Shown here: positions 28,505-38,054 of the stretch, one piece after another
Position numbering within the stretch: position 1 is the stretch's first letter
Layout of the letters: each line of letters starts with the position of its first letter
DNA from: Promethearchaeota archaeon
GTDB taxonomy: Archaea > Asgardarchaeota > Lokiarchaeia > Sigyniarchaeales > SOKP01
Length of the DNA stretch: 43,082 bases
Direction: 5' to 3'
NCBI GenBank assembly: GCA_048938025.1
Contig: JBHLMP010000033.1
Location: forward strand, 1-43,082
The notes under the pieces: generated by a model
Databases searched by the model: none
What the model saw: only the letters and a program-made list of their open reading frames with translations
Told to the model about the DNA's origin: nothing
Made by a program: the position numbers and the translations under genes

Positions 28505-31456
28505 TTGACAAGCCTAACATTAGATACAAAAAAAATTGAAAGCCTAATTTTAAAAGGTCTTTATGAAAAAGCAGCTGAAGAAATATTTAATTTAATAGAT
28601 AATTATCAAATTCATCATGATAAAGAACTAATATATAAGAGCCTTAGTTTATTAAATCTAATTTGTGATAAATCTCCTTCTATTTCTTTAAGAACCGTTA
28701 AAACCATTGCTATATTTATTAATGAAATTGATTCTTGGATTAGATTAGTATCTTTAGAGATATTATATCAAGTTAGCATGTTTAGACCTAATCTATTAAT
28801 TGATTTAATTGATAGAATAAGAGCACGTTTATATGATCAGGAACCTTCTGTAAGAAGATTAACTGTAAGGATCATTGGAAATTTAATTCTTTCCTTGCAT
28901 ATAGATATAGAAGAATTACAAGATATTATTGAAGAATACACTGAAAAATTGATGGATAATGATTGGAAAGTAAAATTAAATGTAATTAAAACCATTCAAA
29001 GAATCCTAAATCAAGATTATAAAAAAATTAGAGATTTAGAACCATTATTATCAATGGTTATAGTAAATCTAAGGGATGAAGATGATGATGTAGCAAGAGC
29101 AGCTGCTGAACTGTTAAAGATTCATGGGTCATATTTTCTTTCTAAGGAAAAATTATTTTATGTTCTTTTAAATCTTCTATATAATGAACAAAATAGAGTT
29201 AAAGAATTAATCATATGGTTATTTGGAGAAATTGGAAAAGAAAAATCATCAGAAATTATTTCAATTATTCCCAAATTAATAAATCTATTAAAAGAAGAAG
29301 ATTATCGTATTGAATTAAAAGTAATTGAAGCACTAGTCAACATAGCAGAAAATAATTTTGATCAAATCTGGGCAAATTTAATAGATTTATTGTTGAATTC
29401 AAGCAATTCTGATTATAGAAACTCATTAATAAATGCAATATATCATTTAAGTCAAAATAATATTAATATTATTTTTCCTTATTTATTTGAGGAATTAGAG
29501 AACCCATCTGAAAATATAAGAGAAGGAATTGCTTTAGTGTTTAAACGATTATTTGAAGAGTACCAAATAGAAATAGAAAATGAAATAACGAAAATGTTAT
29601 ATAATTTAGAATCACGATATTGGAGAGAAAGAGAAAAGACGATACTATTACTTCAGAATATCTGTTTCATATTAAAAAGTAAAAAAATTGCTGTTTGGGT
29701 TACTATTGAATTAGAAAGAGCTTTAAAATATGAAAAAGATCCTGAGGTAAAAGATGAAATAATTTATGCTTTAGAAAATATCAGGAAAAACTTTAGCGAT
29801 ATTGGTACAACTATTCAAAAAATCAATCATGAATTAATATTCTTTCATAAAAAAATTAAGAGTTTTCAAAGAATTCCCGCTCAATTTAGAGAAAAATTAA
29901 ATTCTTATATAAATAATTTCAAATTTAATGATACTGAAATTCAGTTAAATAAGAAATACAGGAGAATTTTAAAAAAAATAAAGAAATTTCATAAAACAAT
30001 TAATAAATTTGAATATAAAAGATTAGCTTTTGATTTAATTGAAGAATGGGAAGAAACTAAAGTTCAAATTATAGAAGAACTAAGTATAATAAAAAATTTT
30101 ATATCTGAAATATGTGAAGAAAAAAAAGCTGAATTTATTACAGATCTAAAATCAAAAATTAAGTTGCTAGAGGACCGTATCGTGGTTTTAAAAACACAAT
30201 TTGATTATATTAAAAATTATGAATTTCGTTTAAATTTAGATGCTTCCATATCAAATATTAAACTAAGTAATGAAGAAAATGAAAGATTCACAGATATTAC
30301 ACAAATAAGAAAAAGTTTATTTAAACTGGACAGTGATATAAGAGAGATTTTAGTAAACAACGTAGAATTCAACGAAATATTTAAAGATTTATTAAGAAAA
30401 TGGGTTGAAACAAAAATTGAAATACAAGAATATTTAAGCGATTTAGATCGGCAAATTAAGCAAATGAAAGATAAAATTATAAATTATTTTTTGCATATTG
30501 AATCAGTCAGTGATATTGCTGAAGAAGAAAGAATTAATGGAATAAGTAGTGAACTTGGGTTTCAGCTTCTTCAAGGACATATACATTCTATCATTTCTCA
30601 AGGAATTGAAGGTTTCAAGAAGATTAATGATAATTTTTCTAAATTGAACTTTAAATTAGAATTTTTAATTAAAAAAGGTGAATTTTCAGATGCTAAGAAG
30701 TTAATTGAGATGAATTCTTCTCAAGTTCAAAATTTTATAGAAGAAAGTGAAAAACAGATCGAAAATATTGTAGGTAAGGAAAAAATTTTTGAAGACAATA
30801 ATGTGTTTAATTTGTACGTTAGACCGTATATCAACAAATTTAATGCTTCAAAAGAATTACTCATAAACAAATTAAAAAATTTTATTGAAAGAAGTAACAA
30901 CAAATTATATCTTAATCAGATTAAACATTATTTGAAAATTATAAACCCTATTAAATTAGACTTACTGTCTTCATATGTAGGATTGGAGATAGAGAAATTA
31001 AAAGAATTATTACTAAAATTTATTAACAAAAATAAAATTAATGCAAATATTATAAATGATGAACTTTATTCACAGCAAATTGAGGCGGATATAGCTTCCT
31101 CTATTGAACTTCTCTTTTTCAAAAATATTAAAACTATTGGAAATAAAATTTATTTAAATTTCAAGTTAACCAATCCTTCAAATTTTGACTTTCAAGATTT
31201 ACAATTATCATTAAAAGTTCCTTCTTATATAGATTTCCAGAAAAAAGAAAGCTTTCCTAAATTTCTCCAATTAAATCAATTAAACCCTGGAAAAGTTTTC
31301 AAATTTAATTATGTGTTAAAAGTTGATAAACAAAAAGAACAAAAGAAGAATTTGTTCGATCCCACAGCTGATGAGATTAAATTGGATTTATACTACAAGG
31401 ATCAATTTAATATAACAAGAAAAACGACAAAAAATATTGATCTTTTATTGCATTAA
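28505..31456 (+). CDS. HEAT-repeat protein with coiled coil, PCI-like winged helix and C-terminal Ig-like domain
   Basis: HEAT motifs LYDQEPSVRR, LMDNDWKVK, LRDEDDDVAR; IKLDLLSSYVGLEIEKLKELLLKFINKNKINANI; beta-rich C-terminus. Confidence 0.8.
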   Translation: MTSLTLDTKKIESLILKGLYEKAAEEIFNLIDNYQIHHDKELIYKSLSLLNLICDKSPSISLRTVKTIAIFINEIDSWIRLVSLEILYQVSMFRPNLLIDLIDRIRARLYDQEPSVRRLTVRIIGNLILSLHIDIEELQDIIEEYTEKLMDNDWKVKLNVIKTIQRILNQDYKKIRDLEPLLSMVIVNLRDEDDDVARAAAELLKIHGSYFLSKEKLFYVLLNLLYNEQNRVKELIIWLFGEIGKEKSSEIISIIPKLINLLKEEDYRIELKVIEALVNIAENNFDQIWANLIDLLLNSSNSDYRNSLINAIYHLSQNNINIIFPYLFEELENPSENIREGIALVFKRLFEEYQIEIENEITKMLYNLESRYWREREKTILLLQNICFILKSKKIAVWVTIELERALKYEKDPEVKDEIIYALENIRKNFSDIGTTIQKINHELIFFHKKIKSFQRIPAQFREKLNSYINNFKFNDTEIQLNKKYRRILKKIKKFHKTINKFEYKRLAFDLIEEWEETKVQIIEELSIIKNFISEICEEKKAEFITDLKSKIKLLEDRIVVLKTQFDYIKNYEFRLNLDASISNIKLSNEENERFTDITQIRKSLFKLDSDIREILVNNVEFNEIFKDLLRKWVETKIEIQEYLSDLDRQIKQMKDKIINYFLHIESVSDIAEEERINGISSELGFQLLQGHIHSIISQGIEGFKKINDNFSKLNFKLEFLIKKGEFSDAKKLIEMNSSQVQNFIEESEKQIENIVGKEKIFEDNNVFNLYVRPYINKFNASKELLINKLKNFIERSNNKLYLNQIKHYLKIINPIKLDLLSSYVGLEIEKLKELLLKFINKNKINANIINDELYSQQIEADIASSIELLFFKNIKTIGNKIYLNFKLTNPSNFDFQDLQLSLKVPSYIDFQKKESFPKFLQLNQLNPGKVFKFNYVLKVDKQKEQKKNLFDPTADEIKLDLYYKDQFNITRKTTKNIDLLLH

Positions 31457-31617: not shown

Positions 31618-32646
31618 ATGCAAGAATTAGAGCGTTATAGACTAACGCAACAGGTTAAATTGTTCGGTTGAAACTGTAAACTAAACGCCAAGAAACTAGA
31701 CACACTTCTTGAGGGGACTGGCTTAAAAGGAGAAATAGAAGACTCTGCGATTATCCCTGTTCCCAATACGGATTTAGTCATGGTTAAAAATATTGACATA
31801 TTCACGCCTATACTTGATGAGCCTGATATTATGGGAGAAATCGCTGCCGCTAATGTAACTAACGATGTATTTGCTCTAAATGTTCCTATTATATCGGGAA
31901 TGTTGGTTTTTCTAGCAATAAACACAAAAACCCCCCTAGAAATCGCTGAAGGCCTATTAAAGGGGATAAAAAGGTTTATGGAACAAAAATTAAATTCTAA
32001 AGTCCTTGGTGGTCATACTATCTATGCTCAATGGCCATTAATTGGTGGCGAAGCAAGTGGTATTGTGAAAAAAGCTCATATTATTAAGAAAAATTATGTG
32101 AAACTCGGAGATGAAATAATACTGACAAAACCTATTGGAAATCAATCTGTAATGGCGGCTTATAGATTACAAAAAAATAGACCTGATCTCCTAGAACATT
32201 ATTCTAATAGTGAAATCGATACTGCAATTGAACTCGCAGTAGAACTAATGATAGAACCTTTACAAGATGTTGTGAAAACGATACATACTTATTCCGATTT
32301 CTCATTTGTCCACTCTATGACTGATGTAAGTGGATTTGGTTTAGCTGGGCACCTAAAGGAGATGCTTCAGAACTCTCATTTATCAGCAATAATAAAAAAA
32401 ATACCTTATATACGATTAGCAAAAGAGTTAGCATATGATTTTGGTTATAAATTCGATGCGTGCTTAATGCCAGAGACTGCTGGAGGAATGCTCCTCTCGG
32501 TTGATCATGAATACGCAGAAGAGTTTTCAGATAGACTGGCTCTTAATGGAGTTAAAAATTGGATTGTTGGAGAAATCGATAAAATAAAGCCAAAACTCGT
32601 TAGAGTTTCCGAGAATGTAGAACATGTTGAAATACAAAAAATTTAA
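31618..32646 (+). CDS. selD: Selenophosphate synthetase, selenoprotein (UGA=Sec at 31669-31671)
   Basis: GAGGTGA RBS, MQELERYRLTQQVKLFG-U-NCKL in frame with ORF 31780; DIFTP, NDVFA, GGHT, LTKPIG, TDVSGFGLAGHL, ETAGG; SECIS downstream. Confidence 0.93.
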
Positions 32647-32718
32647 TGATGTCGATGAAATAAACTAAAACATATTATTGTGGTTGTTTATTGAGAATTC
32701 TGTTGCGAAACAGCATCA
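32647..32718 (+). ncRNA. Eukaryote-type SECIS element of selD1
   Basis: TGATG/CATCA outer helix; AUGA 32655; AATAAAC/GTTTATT; AAA; CATA/TGTG minihelix; GA 32693; CTGTT-GCGA-AACAG hairpin. Confidence 0.88.
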
Positions 32719-32850
32719 ATAAAAATCGAATAGTTTTAAGTTTTTTTTGTTTTAGAATTTATGATTTGGAATAAATATAATTGAGTTGGTTTTTTTATAT
32801 TTTAGATCAATAACATATTCTCTGATAAGGAATAATATTATTTATCGAAA

Positions 32851-32860
32851 ATATCGATAT
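32851..32860. promoter_or_regulatory. Palindrome ATATCGATAT upstream of selD2
   Basis: Overlaps TATCGA-N5-TCGATA (32843-32859). Confidence 0.4.
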
Positions 32861-32951
32861 ATAAAATCTAAAATTTTAATAAATAATATAAATTCACATT
32901 ATTATTAAATTATTAATAGGATTAGAAAAACTAGTAAACGTGAGGTGAAAT

Positions 32952-33980
32952 ATGAAAAAAGAGCCAGAATATAGATTAACAAAGGCTGTCAAAATCTTTG
33001 GATGATCCTGTAAAATGAGTTCTAATGATTTAGTGGATCTACTAAAGAAAACGGGTTTGAGTGGAGAATTTGAAGATGCTGCGATAATACCAATTCCTAA
33101 ATCTGATATGGTAATGGTTAAAAATATCGATATTTTTACTCCTATTGTTGACGAACCAGAAATTATGGGAGAAATCGCTGCTTGTAACGTCACTAATGAT
33201 GTGTATGCGATGAATGTTCCTGAAATTTCTGGAATGTTAGTTTTCTTAGGAATAAACACTAATACTCCTATGGAAATTGCTGAAGGATTACTTAAAGGAA
33301 TAAGCAATTTTATACACAAAAAAATATATTCCAAAGTTGTAGGTGGTCATACAATATACAGTGAATGGCCCTTAATAGGAGGTACTGCCACTGGATTTGT
33401 TGAAAGAAATGCTATTATACATAAATATGGAGTAAAGAGAGGAGATAATCTTATATTGACAAAACCAATAGGATTACAACCTGTAATGGCTGCCTATAGG
33501 TTACTAAAGGATATTCCTGAAATGTTAGAAAGTTATTCTGAAAAGCAACTTAGGAAATCAATTAAACTTGCTATTAAGATTATGACTACATCAAATCAGA
33601 ATGTTGTAAAAACAATTCACTCATATAAAGATTTTTCATTTATCCATGCGATGACTGATGTGACTGGATTTGGTCTTGCTGGTCATTTATTAGAAATGCT
33701 TCAAAATTCTAATTTATCTGCGGTTATTGAAACTATTCCATCAATAAAACTTTCAGAACGTTTATCTATTGATTTAGGTTATGCTTTCGATGAATGTAAA
33801 TGTTCTGAGACTGCGGGTGGTATGCTAATGGCTGTTGATCCACATTATACTGAAGAATTTTCTAATACTCTTTCTAGCAATGGTATTTCGAATTGGATTG
33901 TAGGAAAAATAGATACAGTTGCTCCTGGGCTAGTTAGGATTTCACAAAATATTGAAAATATTGAAATTTCTAAATATTAA
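32952..33980 (+). CDS. selD: Selenophosphate synthetase paralogue, selenoprotein (UGA=Sec at 33003-33005)
   Basis: GAGGTGA RBS, MKKEPEYRLTKAVKIFG-U-SCKM in frame with ORF 33015; same SelD motifs; SECIS downstream. Confidence 0.93.
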
Positions 33981-34052
33981 TGATGTTGATGAAATAGGCT
34001 GAAACACAATTAGTGGTTGCTTATTGAGAGTTCCACATGCAAAGTGGCATCA
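33981..34052 (+). ncRNA. Eukaryote-type SECIS element of selD2
   Basis: TGATG/CATCA; AUGA 33989; AATAGGC/GCTTATT; AAA; CAC/GTG; GA 34026; CCAC-AT-GCAA-A-GTGG hairpin. Confidence 0.88.
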
Positions 34053-34064
34053 AATTTAATATTA

Positions 34065-34856
34065 TCATCTTTCTTTTATTTTACCTTTGAGTTTGAGAAC
34101 TATTTCTCTTAGTTCATTTAAGACTTTATCGACCAACTCCTCTCCATTCTCTATATTAAAAGCAGTAATTGACACCTCAACTTCAACTGATAAACCAATC
34201 CTTGGATGTGTTTTAATCCAAAGTTGAGGATATTTTTCTTCTAACTTATTCGTGTAAGCTGCAATTTGACTTTCTCCAATTCCAGAAAAAAGAAAACCTT
34301 TTTCTATAAATTTTCCTTTCTTCTGTTTTAAAATTGGGGTTATCACATTCCTAAACATTGCTTTCATTTCCGCAGGTACGCCAGGAAATATATAAATAAC
34401 TGTATTTTCTTCAGTAATCTTAACTCCAGGAGCTGTACCTACGGTGTTAGGTAAAGGAGTGGAACCCTGAGGGAGATAAGCCATTTTTTCCCTCTCTTTC
34501 GTCATCCCTTCAAGTTTTAACAGTCCTTTTTCATAAGCTCTATCGTAGGTTCTCTTAATAGATTTATATGCATATTGGTTCAACTCTAATTCTCTATTTA
34601 AACCTTTTGCGATTCCAGTTAAAGTCATATCGTCAAAAGTAGGTCCTATACCTCCTGTAGTTATAATTATATCTGGTTTACGTTTTAAAATATCTTGCAA
34701 TGTACTTGATATGATATTTACTTCATCCCCTATTGTTGTTATTCTTTTAATTTTATGACCAAATTTAGTAATCCTTTTCGCCATCCAATTAGAATTTGTG
34801 TCCTGGGTTTTTCCTATGAGGATTTCATTCCCTATCATTAGAAGTTCAATATTCAT
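34065..34856 (-). CDS. CinA-like molybdopterin-binding-domain protein
   Basis: IGNEILIG..QDTN, TTGGIGPTFDDMT, GTAPG, PGVPAEM. Confidence 0.88.
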   Translation of the reverse strand: MNIELLMIGNEILIGKTQDTNSNWMAKRITKFGHKIKRITTIGDEVNIISSTLQDILKRKPDIIITTGGIGPTFDDMTLTGIAKGLNRELELNQYAYKSIKRTYDRAYEKGLLKLEGMTKEREKMAYLPQGSTPLPNTVGTAPGVKITEENTVIYIFPGVPAEMKAMFRNVITPILKQKKGKFIEKGFLFSGIGESQIAAYTNKLEEKYPQLWIKTHPRIGLSVEVEVSITAFNIENGEELVDKVLNELREIVLKLKGKIKER

Positions 34857-35726: not shown

Positions 35727-38054
35727 ATGCGAAATATGGAGTCTCCGCCTTCTAAAAAAAAATTTATCGGAGCTCTAATATTATTAGCTCTTGGGTTTGC
35801 TTTGATACCGACTGGTTTTCTGCTTAATGATTTTATTCAAACTGAAATTGATAAAGGTATTGCAAATGAAATTCGAATACCTGAACCAGATGACTCAAGT
35901 TATGATGAGTGGATATCAAATGATTATCCAAGTGCCATTCCTATGTACAGAAAATTTTATATGTGGAATTTAACTAATCCTAATGAGTTTCTTATGGGAA
36001 AGAAACCAGAGCTTGAAGAAGTTGGTCCTTATACTTTCCGGGAATATACAACAAAATATAATGTGAGTTATAGTGCCAAAATGGATGAGGTAACCTATAA
36101 ACAATACCCAACATATATATTTCAGCCTGATATGTCTGCTCCCTTATGTTCTCTTGATGATAATATTATAAACGTAAATCCTGCTTATTTAGGAGTTCTG
36201 GAATTAGCGGGAAATGAGGAAAATCTAATTAAAGCCATGTTTCCAACTGTTCTTTCAGAAGTAAAAACCCTATTTGGAGAAGAATTAACTGTAACTTTAG
36301 GAGAACTTTTAACTAATGATGGAATTTATAACATGCTCGTAGGGGCTTTGTCTGACATACTTAGCGATTTATTTTCTGGACTTCTTGGTGATGAGGCTAC
36401 AAACCTAACTGCTACATGGATAGTTGATTTTCTTACTACATACATCGTACCGTTAGAAGATCTGGTAGAATTTATGGATGATGCAATGCCTAGTGCTGAA
36501 GCAATTTTCTTTGCGGAATGGGCAAATGATTATTTTCCTGAAGTTCAAGTGGATTTATCTATTTTATTTAGACATATATTAGAAGTAATAAGCGATCTTG
36601 TTGATTTTATTATTGATCTCATTTTCTTTTGGGATGTTTTACACTTATTTGATGCTATTAAGGATGCTCTGCATGAAGAACTTATGAACATGTTTGAAGA
36701 GTTATTTACTGAATCTCCACTAGCAGAGTTAATTGGAGGACTCTTTGCTGATTTGATCCGAAGCCTGGGTGCTAAAATGGTTGATGAGGAAGGTAGCGAA
36801 ACGGGTGAAGGAGTTGATCTGGATGGTCGAGAACCCTATAATTTCCCAGGCCCAAGTTCTGATTTGAATATCATTAATCGTAGTGAAGCTGGTGAGTCTG
36901 GAGTCACTCAGGAGCAATGTCAGGCTCTTTGGGATCAGAACAACCCAAACTCACTTCTTGGTATGGATGTACAGGTTAATCCAATATGGTTTGAAGCATT
37001 AGCAGGAATTGAAGAAAGTAAAATATTCTTAATGAATGCATTTTGTTTAAATGAAACTCAACTAGATTTAATTTTGAATTGGATTGATACGAGTTTAAAT
37101 GGATGGCTCAAAAATATCTGTGAATATTCGATAAAAGATTGGAATAGCGGTTTACTTACTACTCGTACTGTCGAAGAATGGCTCTTCACAGCTGTGGATA
37201 ATTTAGTAAATATCCAAGATCCGAACGAAGCTAAAGTAGGAATTTTTGACAATTGTTTTTCTGAAGCTGAAGCAGAAGCTAAGGGTATGAAAAATTTCAC
37301 TATAAATACAGGTAAATATGATATTAATAAAGTCTGCGATACTGTTAAATATAACGGTGAGACAGTTATTGCTGTTTGGGAAGAAGATGAAATTGTTCGA
37401 GGTACAGCGGGTACTCAATTTGCCCCGAGGGTTTCAAAAAATAACCCTCTTTATGTTTTCATTACTGATTTATTAAGAACAGTAGAGATTATCTATACTG
37501 AAACTACGAGTATTTACGATATTGAATTATATAGGTTCGAAATATCAGAGGAGACCTTTAAAGTTAATCCAAAATACTACCAATCAATTGAAGGGGTAGC
37601 TAACATGACAGTTGATCAAGGAATTCCTGCTTTCTTAAGTAAACCTCATTTTCTTAATGCAAGTAGCTATATGAAAGAGGCTGTAAATGGTTTAAATCCC
37701 AATAAGCTACAACATGATACTTATCTTGATATTGAACCTTTAACGGGCGCTACAATGAATGCGGCTGAAAGAATACAAATTAATTTTTTGGTTAATCAAA
37801 CTGATATATGGTATAAAAATTGCTGGGAAGGCATAATGCCTATTCTTTGGCTTGAATTTGGTGGACAAATAACAGAAAATCTAGCAAATAAATTCAAAAA
37901 TTTGGTTTATACCGCTCAAAATCTAAGTGAAAATCTATTTTATAGCTGTATTGGTATTGGGGCTACCCTCATTATTCCTGGTGCGATTTTTACAACAACA
38001 CAGAATAGAAAGCGATTAAACGTTAAAAAACAAAAATTATCACAAACTGTTTAA
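35727..38054 (+). CDS. CD36/SCARB (LIMP-2/SR-B) family membrane protein with large helical insertion
   Basis: N- and C-terminal TMs; FYMWNLTNP.E...G.KP.LEEVGPYTFRE; NTG..DI; GT.GTQF.P; LSKPHFL; GL.P...H.TYLDIEPLTG....A..RIQIN. Confidence 0.88.
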   Translation: MRNMESPPSKKKFIGALILLALGFALIPTGFLLNDFIQTEIDKGIANEIRIPEPDDSSYDEWISNDYPSAIPMYRKFYMWNLTNPNEFLMGKKPELEEVGPYTFREYTTKYNVSYSAKMDEVTYKQYPTYIFQPDMSAPLCSLDDNIINVNPAYLGVLELAGNEENLIKAMFPTVLSEVKTLFGEELTVTLGELLTNDGIYNMLVGALSDILSDLFSGLLGDEATNLTATWIVDFLTTYIVPLEDLVEFMDDAMPSAEAIFFAEWANDYFPEVQVDLSILFRHILEVISDLVDFIIDLIFFWDVLHLFDAIKDALHEELMNMFEELFTESPLAELIGGLFADLIRSLGAKMVDEEGSETGEGVDLDGREPYNFPGPSSDLNIINRSEAGESGVTQEQCQALWDQNNPNSLLGMDVQVNPIWFEALAGIEESKIFLMNAFCLNETQLDLILNWIDTSLNGWLKNICEYSIKDWNSGLLTTRTVEEWLFTAVDNLVNIQDPNEAKVGIFDNCFSEAEAEAKGMKNFTINTGKYDINKVCDTVKYNGETVIAVWEEDEIVRGTAGTQFAPRVSKNNPLYVFITDLLRTVEIIYTETTSIYDIELYRFEISEETFKVNPKYYQSIEGVANMTVDQGIPAFLSKPHFLNASSYMKEAVNGLNPNKLQHDTYLDIEPLTGATMNAAERIQINFLVNQTDIWYKNCWEGIMPILWLEFGGQITENLANKFKNLVYTAQNLSENLFYSCIGIGATLIIPGAIFTTTQNRKRLNVKKQKLSQTV

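Follow-up and report, generated by a model that had tools for sequence, protein, structure and literature searches.

Two selD genes, each followed by a three-armed element

The window analysed here, by which we mean the whole 43,082-nucleotide (nt) stretch of contig JBHLMP010000033.1 in the Promethearchaeota assembly GCA_048938025.1, carries a tandem pair of selenophosphate synthetase genes, selD1 (31618..32646, + strand) and selD2 (32952..33980, +), and directly behind each of them a 72-nt RNA element that is probably a selenocysteine insertion sequence (SECIS). Each gene comprises 343 codons and, when translated with TGA as selenocysteine (Sec, U), contains a single in-frame TGA, which is codon 18 in both cases (31669-31671 in selD1 and 33003-33005 in selD2). 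The two paralogues are 63% identical. As the criterion for selD identity we used the equivalog model TIGR00476, the cut-off of which (125 bits) is exceeded by selD1 (172.9 bits, with AIRS and AIRS_C domains) as well as by selD2 (198 bits).

The two elements, SECIS 1 (32647..32718, +) and SECIS 2 (33981..34052, +), each begin at the first base after the TAA stop codon of the preceding gene and form a full three-way junction, scoring 88.5 and 84.5 bits, respectively, with the covariance model R1 described below. In SECIS 1 the outer helix, P1, is made of a 5' arm UGAUG (32647..32651) and a 3' arm CAUCA (32714..32718). The 5' arm leads into the bulged strand of a kink-turn (32652..32658), which consists of the UC of a 2-base-pair (bp) canonical stem (C-stem; 32652-53), a 3-nt loop G-A-U (32654-56) and the G-A of tandem G.A pairs (32657-58), with the AUGA motif at 32655-58. 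The upper helix P2 and the apex follow (32659..32692), namely AAUAAAC (32659-65) paired with GUUUAUU (32686-92), an unpaired UAAAA (32666-70) and a type II minihelix CAU/GUG (32671-82). The non-bulged strand (32693..32699) then returns through the core GA (32693-94), the C-stem GA (32695-96) and a 3-nt linker AUU (32697-99) to an extra hairpin, P3 (32700..32713; CUGUU-GCGA-AACAG), which adjoins the 3' arm of P1 without a linker. In SECIS 2, likewise on the + strand, P1 lies at 33981-85 / 34048-52, the C-stem UU at 33986-87 / GA at 34028-29, AUGA at 33989-92, the core GA at 34026-27, P2 at 33993-99 (AAUAGGC) / 34019-25 (GCUUAUU), the minihelix at 34005-15 and P3 at 34033..34047 (CCAC(AU)-GCAA-(A)GUGG), the stem of which is unlike P3 of SECIS 1 in sequence. 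Across the aligned stretch the two elements are 83% identical.

The minimum free energy structure predicted by RNAfold for SECIS 1 is the three-way fold including P3, and that of SECIS 2 is a similar fold with a shorter P3. A sequence-only reading of this DNA had listed the same helices in two 72-nt elements, together with the AUGA...GA core, the unpaired A's, the minihelix and the extra hairpin on the 3' strand, and this description is borne out by the sequence and by the alignments that follow.

Covariation in the selD elements of one family

Among relatives of the source genome we collected 21 selD loci, of which 20 are labelled Promethearchaeota or related and one Hodarchaeota; most hold a tandem pair, and the same layout recurs in nearly every 3' region. 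Thirty-six of these selD elements were aligned with MAFFT only, that is, blind to structure, leaving out the divergent second element of locus L008 as well as the second copy of L018 and L024, which lie at contig ends. Even so aligned, 91.8% of the cells are paired, as against 29-47% when the partners are slid, and four of the five P3 pairs show two-sided change. The covariance model R1 was built from this alignment. Its strong matches in the source genome are confined to the two selD elements, and in a sample of 151 genomes it matched 22 of the 25 genomes of the same family (f1) and none in 26 other families.

The alignment fitted with R1 holds 74 matches, 62 of them distinct, and among the distinct elements 94.2-94.5% of the cells are paired (32-47% when slid), with 17 of the 22 pairs changing on both sides. 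All five P3 pairs do so while 92.4% of the P3 cells are paired; examples are a pair that is GC in 29 rows and AU in 23, one that is UA in 31, CG in 20 and UG in 7, and one that is UA in 24, UG in 17 and CG in 12. No other helix of the selD element covaries as strongly as P3. P1 changes on both sides at four of its five pairs and is 95.9% paired; for P2 and the minihelix the proportions are 92.3% and 98.9%.

The same 62 distinct elements define the core. The C-stem pair in columns 9-56 is CG in 46 rows, UA in 10 and UG in 3, with no row unpaired, and the pair in columns 8-57 is UA in 52, AU in 3 and another combination in 3; both pairs change on both sides. Since this covarying 2-bp C-stem stands beside the core, we take the core to be a standard kink-turn with a 3-nt loop, and the succession of C-stem, 3-nt loop N-A-U, G.A and A.G pairs and non-canonical (NC) helix, here P2, corresponds to that of a simple kink-turn. 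Gaps apart, the G and A of the core never vary (G in 60 rows, A in 61), and at 3b.3n, which adjoins the G.A pairs, 30 rows have A-U and 28 a non-standard combination. P1 runs into the C-stem without a gap on the 5' strand; on the 3' strand P3 is reached through a linker of 3 nt, and no column separates P3 from the 3' arm of P1. The covariation in the 36- and 62-element alignments and at the C-stem pairs thus upholds the earlier proposal that the extra hairpin is an additional RNA helix making a three-way junction.

The third arm in other Asgard families

A selD gene was found at E <=1e-40 in 222 of 400 genomes of the phylum, and 38 selD loci from 11 other families were chosen for a distant test. 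One of them (L075, at a contig edge) was dropped, leaving 37, and three had no core by rule, leaving 34 cores. On these loci R1 matched only 15 places, some of them spurious, and because its reach was so poor we applied a written rule together with shuffles. Under this rule the core is picked blind to what follows, after which two helices are sought, both without mismatch: P3, of 4 bp or more, and P1 enclosing it, of 5 bp or more and including two or more G-C pairs. P3 with nested P1 is present by rule at 25 of the 34 cores, in 10 of the 11 families, compared with 7.2% of shuffled downstream segments. At most distant loci, inspection by eye shows AUGA or GUGA followed by an upper helix, by AAAC together with a minihelix and by GA; a short linker then leads to a hairpin whose stem is unrelated and whose loop holds GCAA, GCGA, GUGA or similar, and behind it stands the 3' arm of the lower helix. 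Covariation and conservation of the hairpin behind other Asgard selD genes, on which the sequence-only reading had staked its proposal, are therefore present, at five of five P3 pairs and in 10 of 11 other families.

In several of these distant selD loci (L083, L085, L087, L088, L095 and L098-L106, from families f29, f28, f13, f8 and f7) the UGA within the AUGA of the core serves as stop codon, and the 5' arm of P1 lies in coding sequence.

Type I elements behind other selenoprotein genes

A regular-expression scan of the source genome showed that type I elements behind other genes share the layout of linker, hairpin and lower arm. The genes upstream are three of the VhuD/MvhD type (FlpD), one for an HdrA-like Fe-S protein and one that is VhuU-like, each with an in-frame TGA; the VhuU-like gene was recognized from its motif by eye and has no Pfam match. 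A model restricted to the type I core (R2: C-stem, AUGA, 9-bp stem, 11-nt loop and GA), which contains neither P3 nor P1, finds eight elements in the source genome and matches all 25 family f1 genomes and none of the 26 other families in the 151-genome sample. From these searches we assembled a non-random type I sample of 76 loci, made up of the 8 (of 10) in the source genome at E <=0.001, 28 loci and 40 top-of-list regions. By rule, P3 of at least 3 bp together with P1 of at least 5 bp is present in 66 of 77 type I elements and in 17.5% of shuffles. The model of the full type I junction, R3, aligned 78 matches (75 distinct), in which 93.3% of the cells are paired, as against 33-48% when slid, and all 23 of 23 pairs change on both sides, including four P3 and seven P1 pairs.

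The arm is thus no variant peculiar to the two elements of the window or to selD, but is found with the selD genes of 10 of 11 other families and with the type I signals of VhuD, HdrA and VhuU-like genes in the source genome and 25 related ones. A role of P3 as the site of a selD-specific regulator was considered and rejected, because the arm is present in type I elements behind other selenoprotein genes.

In some relatives a selD gene carries a type I element, with its 9-bp stem and 11-nt loop, in place of the type II element (L008:2227-2309 (+), G144:C2:205417-205468 and G138:C64:6015-6066), and the third arm is retained in the type I selD element of L008. This suggests that SECIS types may have been swapped between genes. 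Type I elements of the source genome can also overlap the stop codon: that of the VhuD gene on contig C15, UAG, is the 5' strand of the C-stem, and that of the gene on C85 is the core UGA, as is the case on C87, which is identical in sequence at that point.

The loop of the third arm

The first position of the selD P3 loop is G in all 61 rows that have a letter there. The second is C in 53 rows and U in 8, the third A in 34, G in 22 and U in 5, and the fourth A in 43, C in 11 and U in 7. Type I P3 loops contain GC in 66 of 75 cases and G-Y-R in 62 of 75, while no GC occurs in any of these elements' 75 apical loops. The sequence-only reading had called both loops GNRA, which is correct for SECIS 1 (GCGA) and SECIS 2 (GCAA) and does not hold as a rule: GNRA loops make up 43 of 60 in selD elements and 33 of 75 in type I elements, and in selD loci of distant families a GNRA sequence is contained in 16 of 30 P3 loops. 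The constant feature of the loop is a G followed by C or U, and the loop is G-C/U-R-A-like rather than strictly GNRA.

Relation to known signals

Assignment of the elements as SECIS follows from their position immediately behind selD genes that contain an in-frame TGA, from a selB match in the same genome and from their type II dimensions. For Asgard type II elements the text of Huang 2024 (PMC11227280) gives an upper stem of 7-15 bp, a ministem of 2-8 bp, a bulge of 4-12 nt and an apical loop of 2-6 nt. Both elements lie within these limits, with an upper stem of 7 bp, a ministem of 3 bp, a bulge of 5+3 nt and a loop of 6 nt (SECIS 1) or 5 nt (SECIS 2), and both show the core pattern 5'-GA_[G/A]A-3' preceded by AU. 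As described in the texts of the two papers, the lokiSECIS of SPS/selD (Mariotti 2016, PMC4989117) corresponds to the Asgard type II eSECIS-like structure (Huang 2024, PMC11227280), and it is here that SECIS 1 and SECIS 2 belong: the features given there, namely a place directly behind the selD stop, the AUGA...GA core, a main stem that is short (7 bp in our case), unpaired A's and an additional ministem at the apex, are shared by our elements.

What these texts describe is the core, the upper stem, the apical part and an internal loop with a lower stem, the only conserved feature in this last region being G[A/U]G_C[U/A]C (PMC4989117, PMC11227280). The comparison with published Loki SECIS that the sequence-only reading had called for accordingly turned up, in these texts, only an internal loop and a lower stem where the arm sits. 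Our alignments add three things to this description: a C-stem of 2 bp, which covaries; a third hairpin, likewise covarying, whose loop is constrained; and a P1 that closes the whole into a three-way junction. The main-text descriptions in Mariotti 2016, Huang 2024, Sun 2021 and the 2022 and 2026 reviews mention neither a 3'-side hairpin nor a junction, but figures and supplements, such as Fig. 5 of Mariotti 2016 and Fig. 1 and S11 of Huang 2024, may draw the arm. Literature searches on SECIS with a three-way junction, archaeal GNRA and Asgard kink-turns returned nothing relevant.

The upper helix of eukaryotic SECIS elements measures about 12-15 bp, and the Asgard helix, at 7 bp, is shorter. 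Eukaryotic type II SECIS (RF00031 and relatives) have in common with the Asgard elements the position in the 3' untranslated region (UTR), the AUGA_GA core of kink-turn type, the unpaired A's, the apical ministem and the lower helix; they differ, according to the text of Huang 2024 (PMC11227280), in having an internal loop where the Asgard element has a paired C-stem and P3. The protein SBP2 is reported to be missing in Asgard archaea in the texts of both papers (PMC4989117, PMC11227280). The eaSECIS of Methanococcales and Methanopyrus is likewise an archaeal 3' UTR signal for Sec insertion acting at a distance, but is defined in the text of Huang 2024 (PMC11227280) by a GAA_A bulge and G/C pairs of the upper stem, and not by a kink-turn.

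Structurally, the closest comparison is with the k-junction, which the text of Wang 2014 (PMC4005666) describes as a kink-turn whose non-bulged strand carries an inserted third helix and which thereby becomes a three-way junction, and of which the thiamine pyrophosphate (TPP) riboswitch and J4/5 and J94/99 of Haloarcula marismortui 23S are examples (PMC4005666). P3 agrees with that description in its place on the strand of the 3' GA, where it stands between this GA and the 3' arm of P1. In the k-junctions the third helix is directly opposite the loop and coaxial with the C helix, with standard cross-strand hydrogen bonds; in the Asgard elements a C-stem of 2 bp (selD) or 2-3 bp (type I) and 0-3 unpaired bases separate the G.A pairs from the branch. 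In sequence and covariation the core also matches the simple kink-turns to which L7Ae binds, such as Kt-7 and those of archaeal box C/D and H/ACA RNAs, with a Watson-Crick C-stem, a 3-nt bulge, G.A followed by A.G and an NC helix with variable 3b.3n, and it differs from them in that the Asgard C-stem is only 2-3 bp long and ends in a junction.

Interpretation and alternatives

We are highly confident that the three-armed structure is real. More broadly, we hold it to be on balance probable that SECIS 1 and SECIS 2 are the Sec insertion signals of the selD mRNAs, of the published Asgard type II kind, that they are built as a three-way junction on a standard kink-turn and that P3 has a role in recoding. 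The third arm and the C-stem kink-turn are a structural refinement of a known signal, supported by covariation, and not a demonstrated mechanism.

Several observations weigh against this interpretation. The fold energies of SECIS 1 and SECIS 2 are not beyond those of shuffles (z -1.12 and -0.73), so that thermodynamics alone shows nothing beyond chance for either of them. Scanning the window with Rfam gave no SECIS or other relevant family at gathering score, and within 32500-34200 no SECIS family at E up to 10. The alignments fitted with R1 and R3 are shaped by structure and their sequences are kin, for which reason the shuffle controls overstate and the numbers lean towards structure. The rule for distant selD cores fails in 9 of the 34, and a rule demanding P3 only does not discriminate, since it is satisfied by 30 of the 34 cores and by 58.7% of shuffles; the signal therefore lies in covariation and in the nesting of P3 inside P1. 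In the type I sample the rule missed 11 of 77 elements, in most of which the hairpin is still visible. Outside family f1 the arm has been shown for selD only, and in family f7 the MvhD homologues mostly lack an in-frame TGA and show no clear SECIS in the seven loci inspected. With regard to the loop, the mutual information of its three variable columns with every other column of the alignment does not exceed 0.30, as against 0.49-0.67 for true pairs, so no column covaries with it; the loop is moreover not strictly GNRA, and a tetraloop-receptor contact, proposed from the sequence at the outset alongside the docking of a factor, is for these two reasons without support.

As to how the element might act, we propose that an L7Ae-family protein would bind the kink-turn, two L7Ae-family genes being present in the genome, and that the junction would fix the angle of P2 and the A-rich motif relative to P1 and P3. 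The G-C/U loop of P3 could then offer a second, sequence-specific contact to the Sec-specific elongation factor, an adaptor or the ribosome, and this contact would stand in for the role that SBP2 has in eukaryotes. Because P1, the C-stem and the kink-turn are situated at the stop codon or no more than about 15 nt from it, they would, probably with part of P2, be melted by every terminating ribosome. P3 would be the sole helix far enough downstream to stay folded during termination, and by staying folded it could hold a bound factor and seed refolding. A bolder version is that in Asgard archaea, the archaeal lineage nearest to eukaryotes, the SECIS is a kink-turn three-way junction and no stem-loop, that P3 with its conserved loop is the obligatory second site for SBP2-independent recoding, that the three-armed form is ancestral at the transition from archaea to eukaryotes and that the arm was lost in eukaryotes when SBP2 took over; we put this forward tentatively, as something that may be so but that we would not expect.

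Other explanations can be given for the same hairpin. P3 might be purely architectural, a clamp or folding nucleus for the junction and kink-turn with a loop that is read by no factor. Such a part would be expected to keep its stem by compensatory change while its sequence drifts freely, as P3 does, and the GNRA-like loops would then be merely stable caps; the failure of any column to covary with the loop, and the position of P1 and the core at the stop codon, where they must refold after each ribosome, are consistent with this. The loop, however, is more constrained than a cap would need: every one of the 61 selD rows with a letter at its first position has G there, GC is found in 66 of 75 type I P3 loops and 0 of 75 apical loops, GCA, GCAA and GCGA loops recur in distant families on unrelated stems, and loops of 5 to 7 nt (UAGCA, AUAGCAA) are not stable tetraloops. 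We therefore judge a purely architectural P3 to be unlikely, though it deserves to be kept in mind. An RNA hairpin at the 3' end of a message, with a run of eight T's (T8) about 25 nt downstream of SECIS 1, also calls to mind a separate signal lying inside the SECIS, for termination, 3'-end protection, processing or the binding of a regulator, and dispensable for recoding. P3 is nested, however, and the 3' arm of P1, which covaries, invariably comes next, in most elements 0-1 nt away; no T-run adjoins P3 itself, its distance to the kink-turn is fixed in selD and type I elements, and all gene families checked have it together with the SECIS core, all of which makes a separate signal quite improbable.

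That the likeness of the two hairpins in the window merely reflects chance or a recent selD duplication could be argued from the 83% identity of SECIS 1 and SECIS 2 and from their unremarkable fold energy. Against this, the two P3 stems differ in sequence and yet both pair, compensatory changes occur at all five P3 pairs in 62 distinct elements, and 10 of 11 other families have unrelated P3 stems in the corresponding position, with 7.2% in shuffles; we give this explanation practically no credence. If the element is a three-way junction built on a kink-turn and bearing a conserved third arm, this has several consequences. Asgard SECIS have been used as a bridge between archaeal and eukaryotic Sec decoding, and evolutionary schemes linking the two would need an extra step, a loss or a gain of the arm. 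Search models that end at the core and upper stem would miss a third of the structure. We know of no archaeal SECIS-binding protein, and the kink-turn with the P3 loop would provide a concrete bait for the missing binding factor. The element would finally be a natural example of the conversion of a kink-turn to a junction outside riboswitches and rRNA.

Other genes and observations

The source genome assembly comprises 3.5 Mb in 88 contigs. Its selB match, at C48:25907-26818, is barely above the cut-off (243.7 as compared with 242.25 bits). Two matches to PF01248, the L7Ae family, were obtained, presumably L7Ae and L30e; an additional SBP2-like L7Ae paralogue was considered and set aside, as the genome gives just these two matches. 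A tRNA-Sec was not found in the genome by aragorn, and all matches to the Rfam tRNA-Sec model are sub-threshold; among them is a 117-nt candidate at G000:C48:22637-22753 (-), with 34.6 bits compared with a gathering score of 47, about 3 kb from the selB match. An intron-bearing tRNA-Sec is reported for Lokiarchaeota in the text of PMC9499178, and the extra length of the 117-nt match would fit such a tRNA.

A further type I SECIS match, at G000:C77:4315-4366 (-) with 38.5 bits, follows a 113-amino-acid (aa) open reading frame (ORF; L112:1547-1885, -) in which two in-frame TGA codons stand side by side (…HADUUADV…); the ORF has no match in Pfam and may encode an undescribed selenoprotein. At two family f7 loci, L196 and L203, the sequence just after the MvhD homologues resembles, by eye, a tRNA gene on the opposite strand and not a SECIS.

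Within the window, the selD pair has three neighbouring genes: one for a protein with HEAT repeats, one on the other strand for a MoCF_biosynth protein, and one for a member of the CD36 family. The HEAT-repeat protein, of 983 aa with HEAT, HEAT_2 and Cnd1 matches, is encoded directly upstream of selD1 (28505-31456, +). The CD36 family (PF01130) match lies in a 775-aa ORF (35727-38054, +) and extends over two stretches, with an E value of 3.2e-99; since this family is known mainly from eukaryotes, its occurrence in an Asgard genome is worthy of note.

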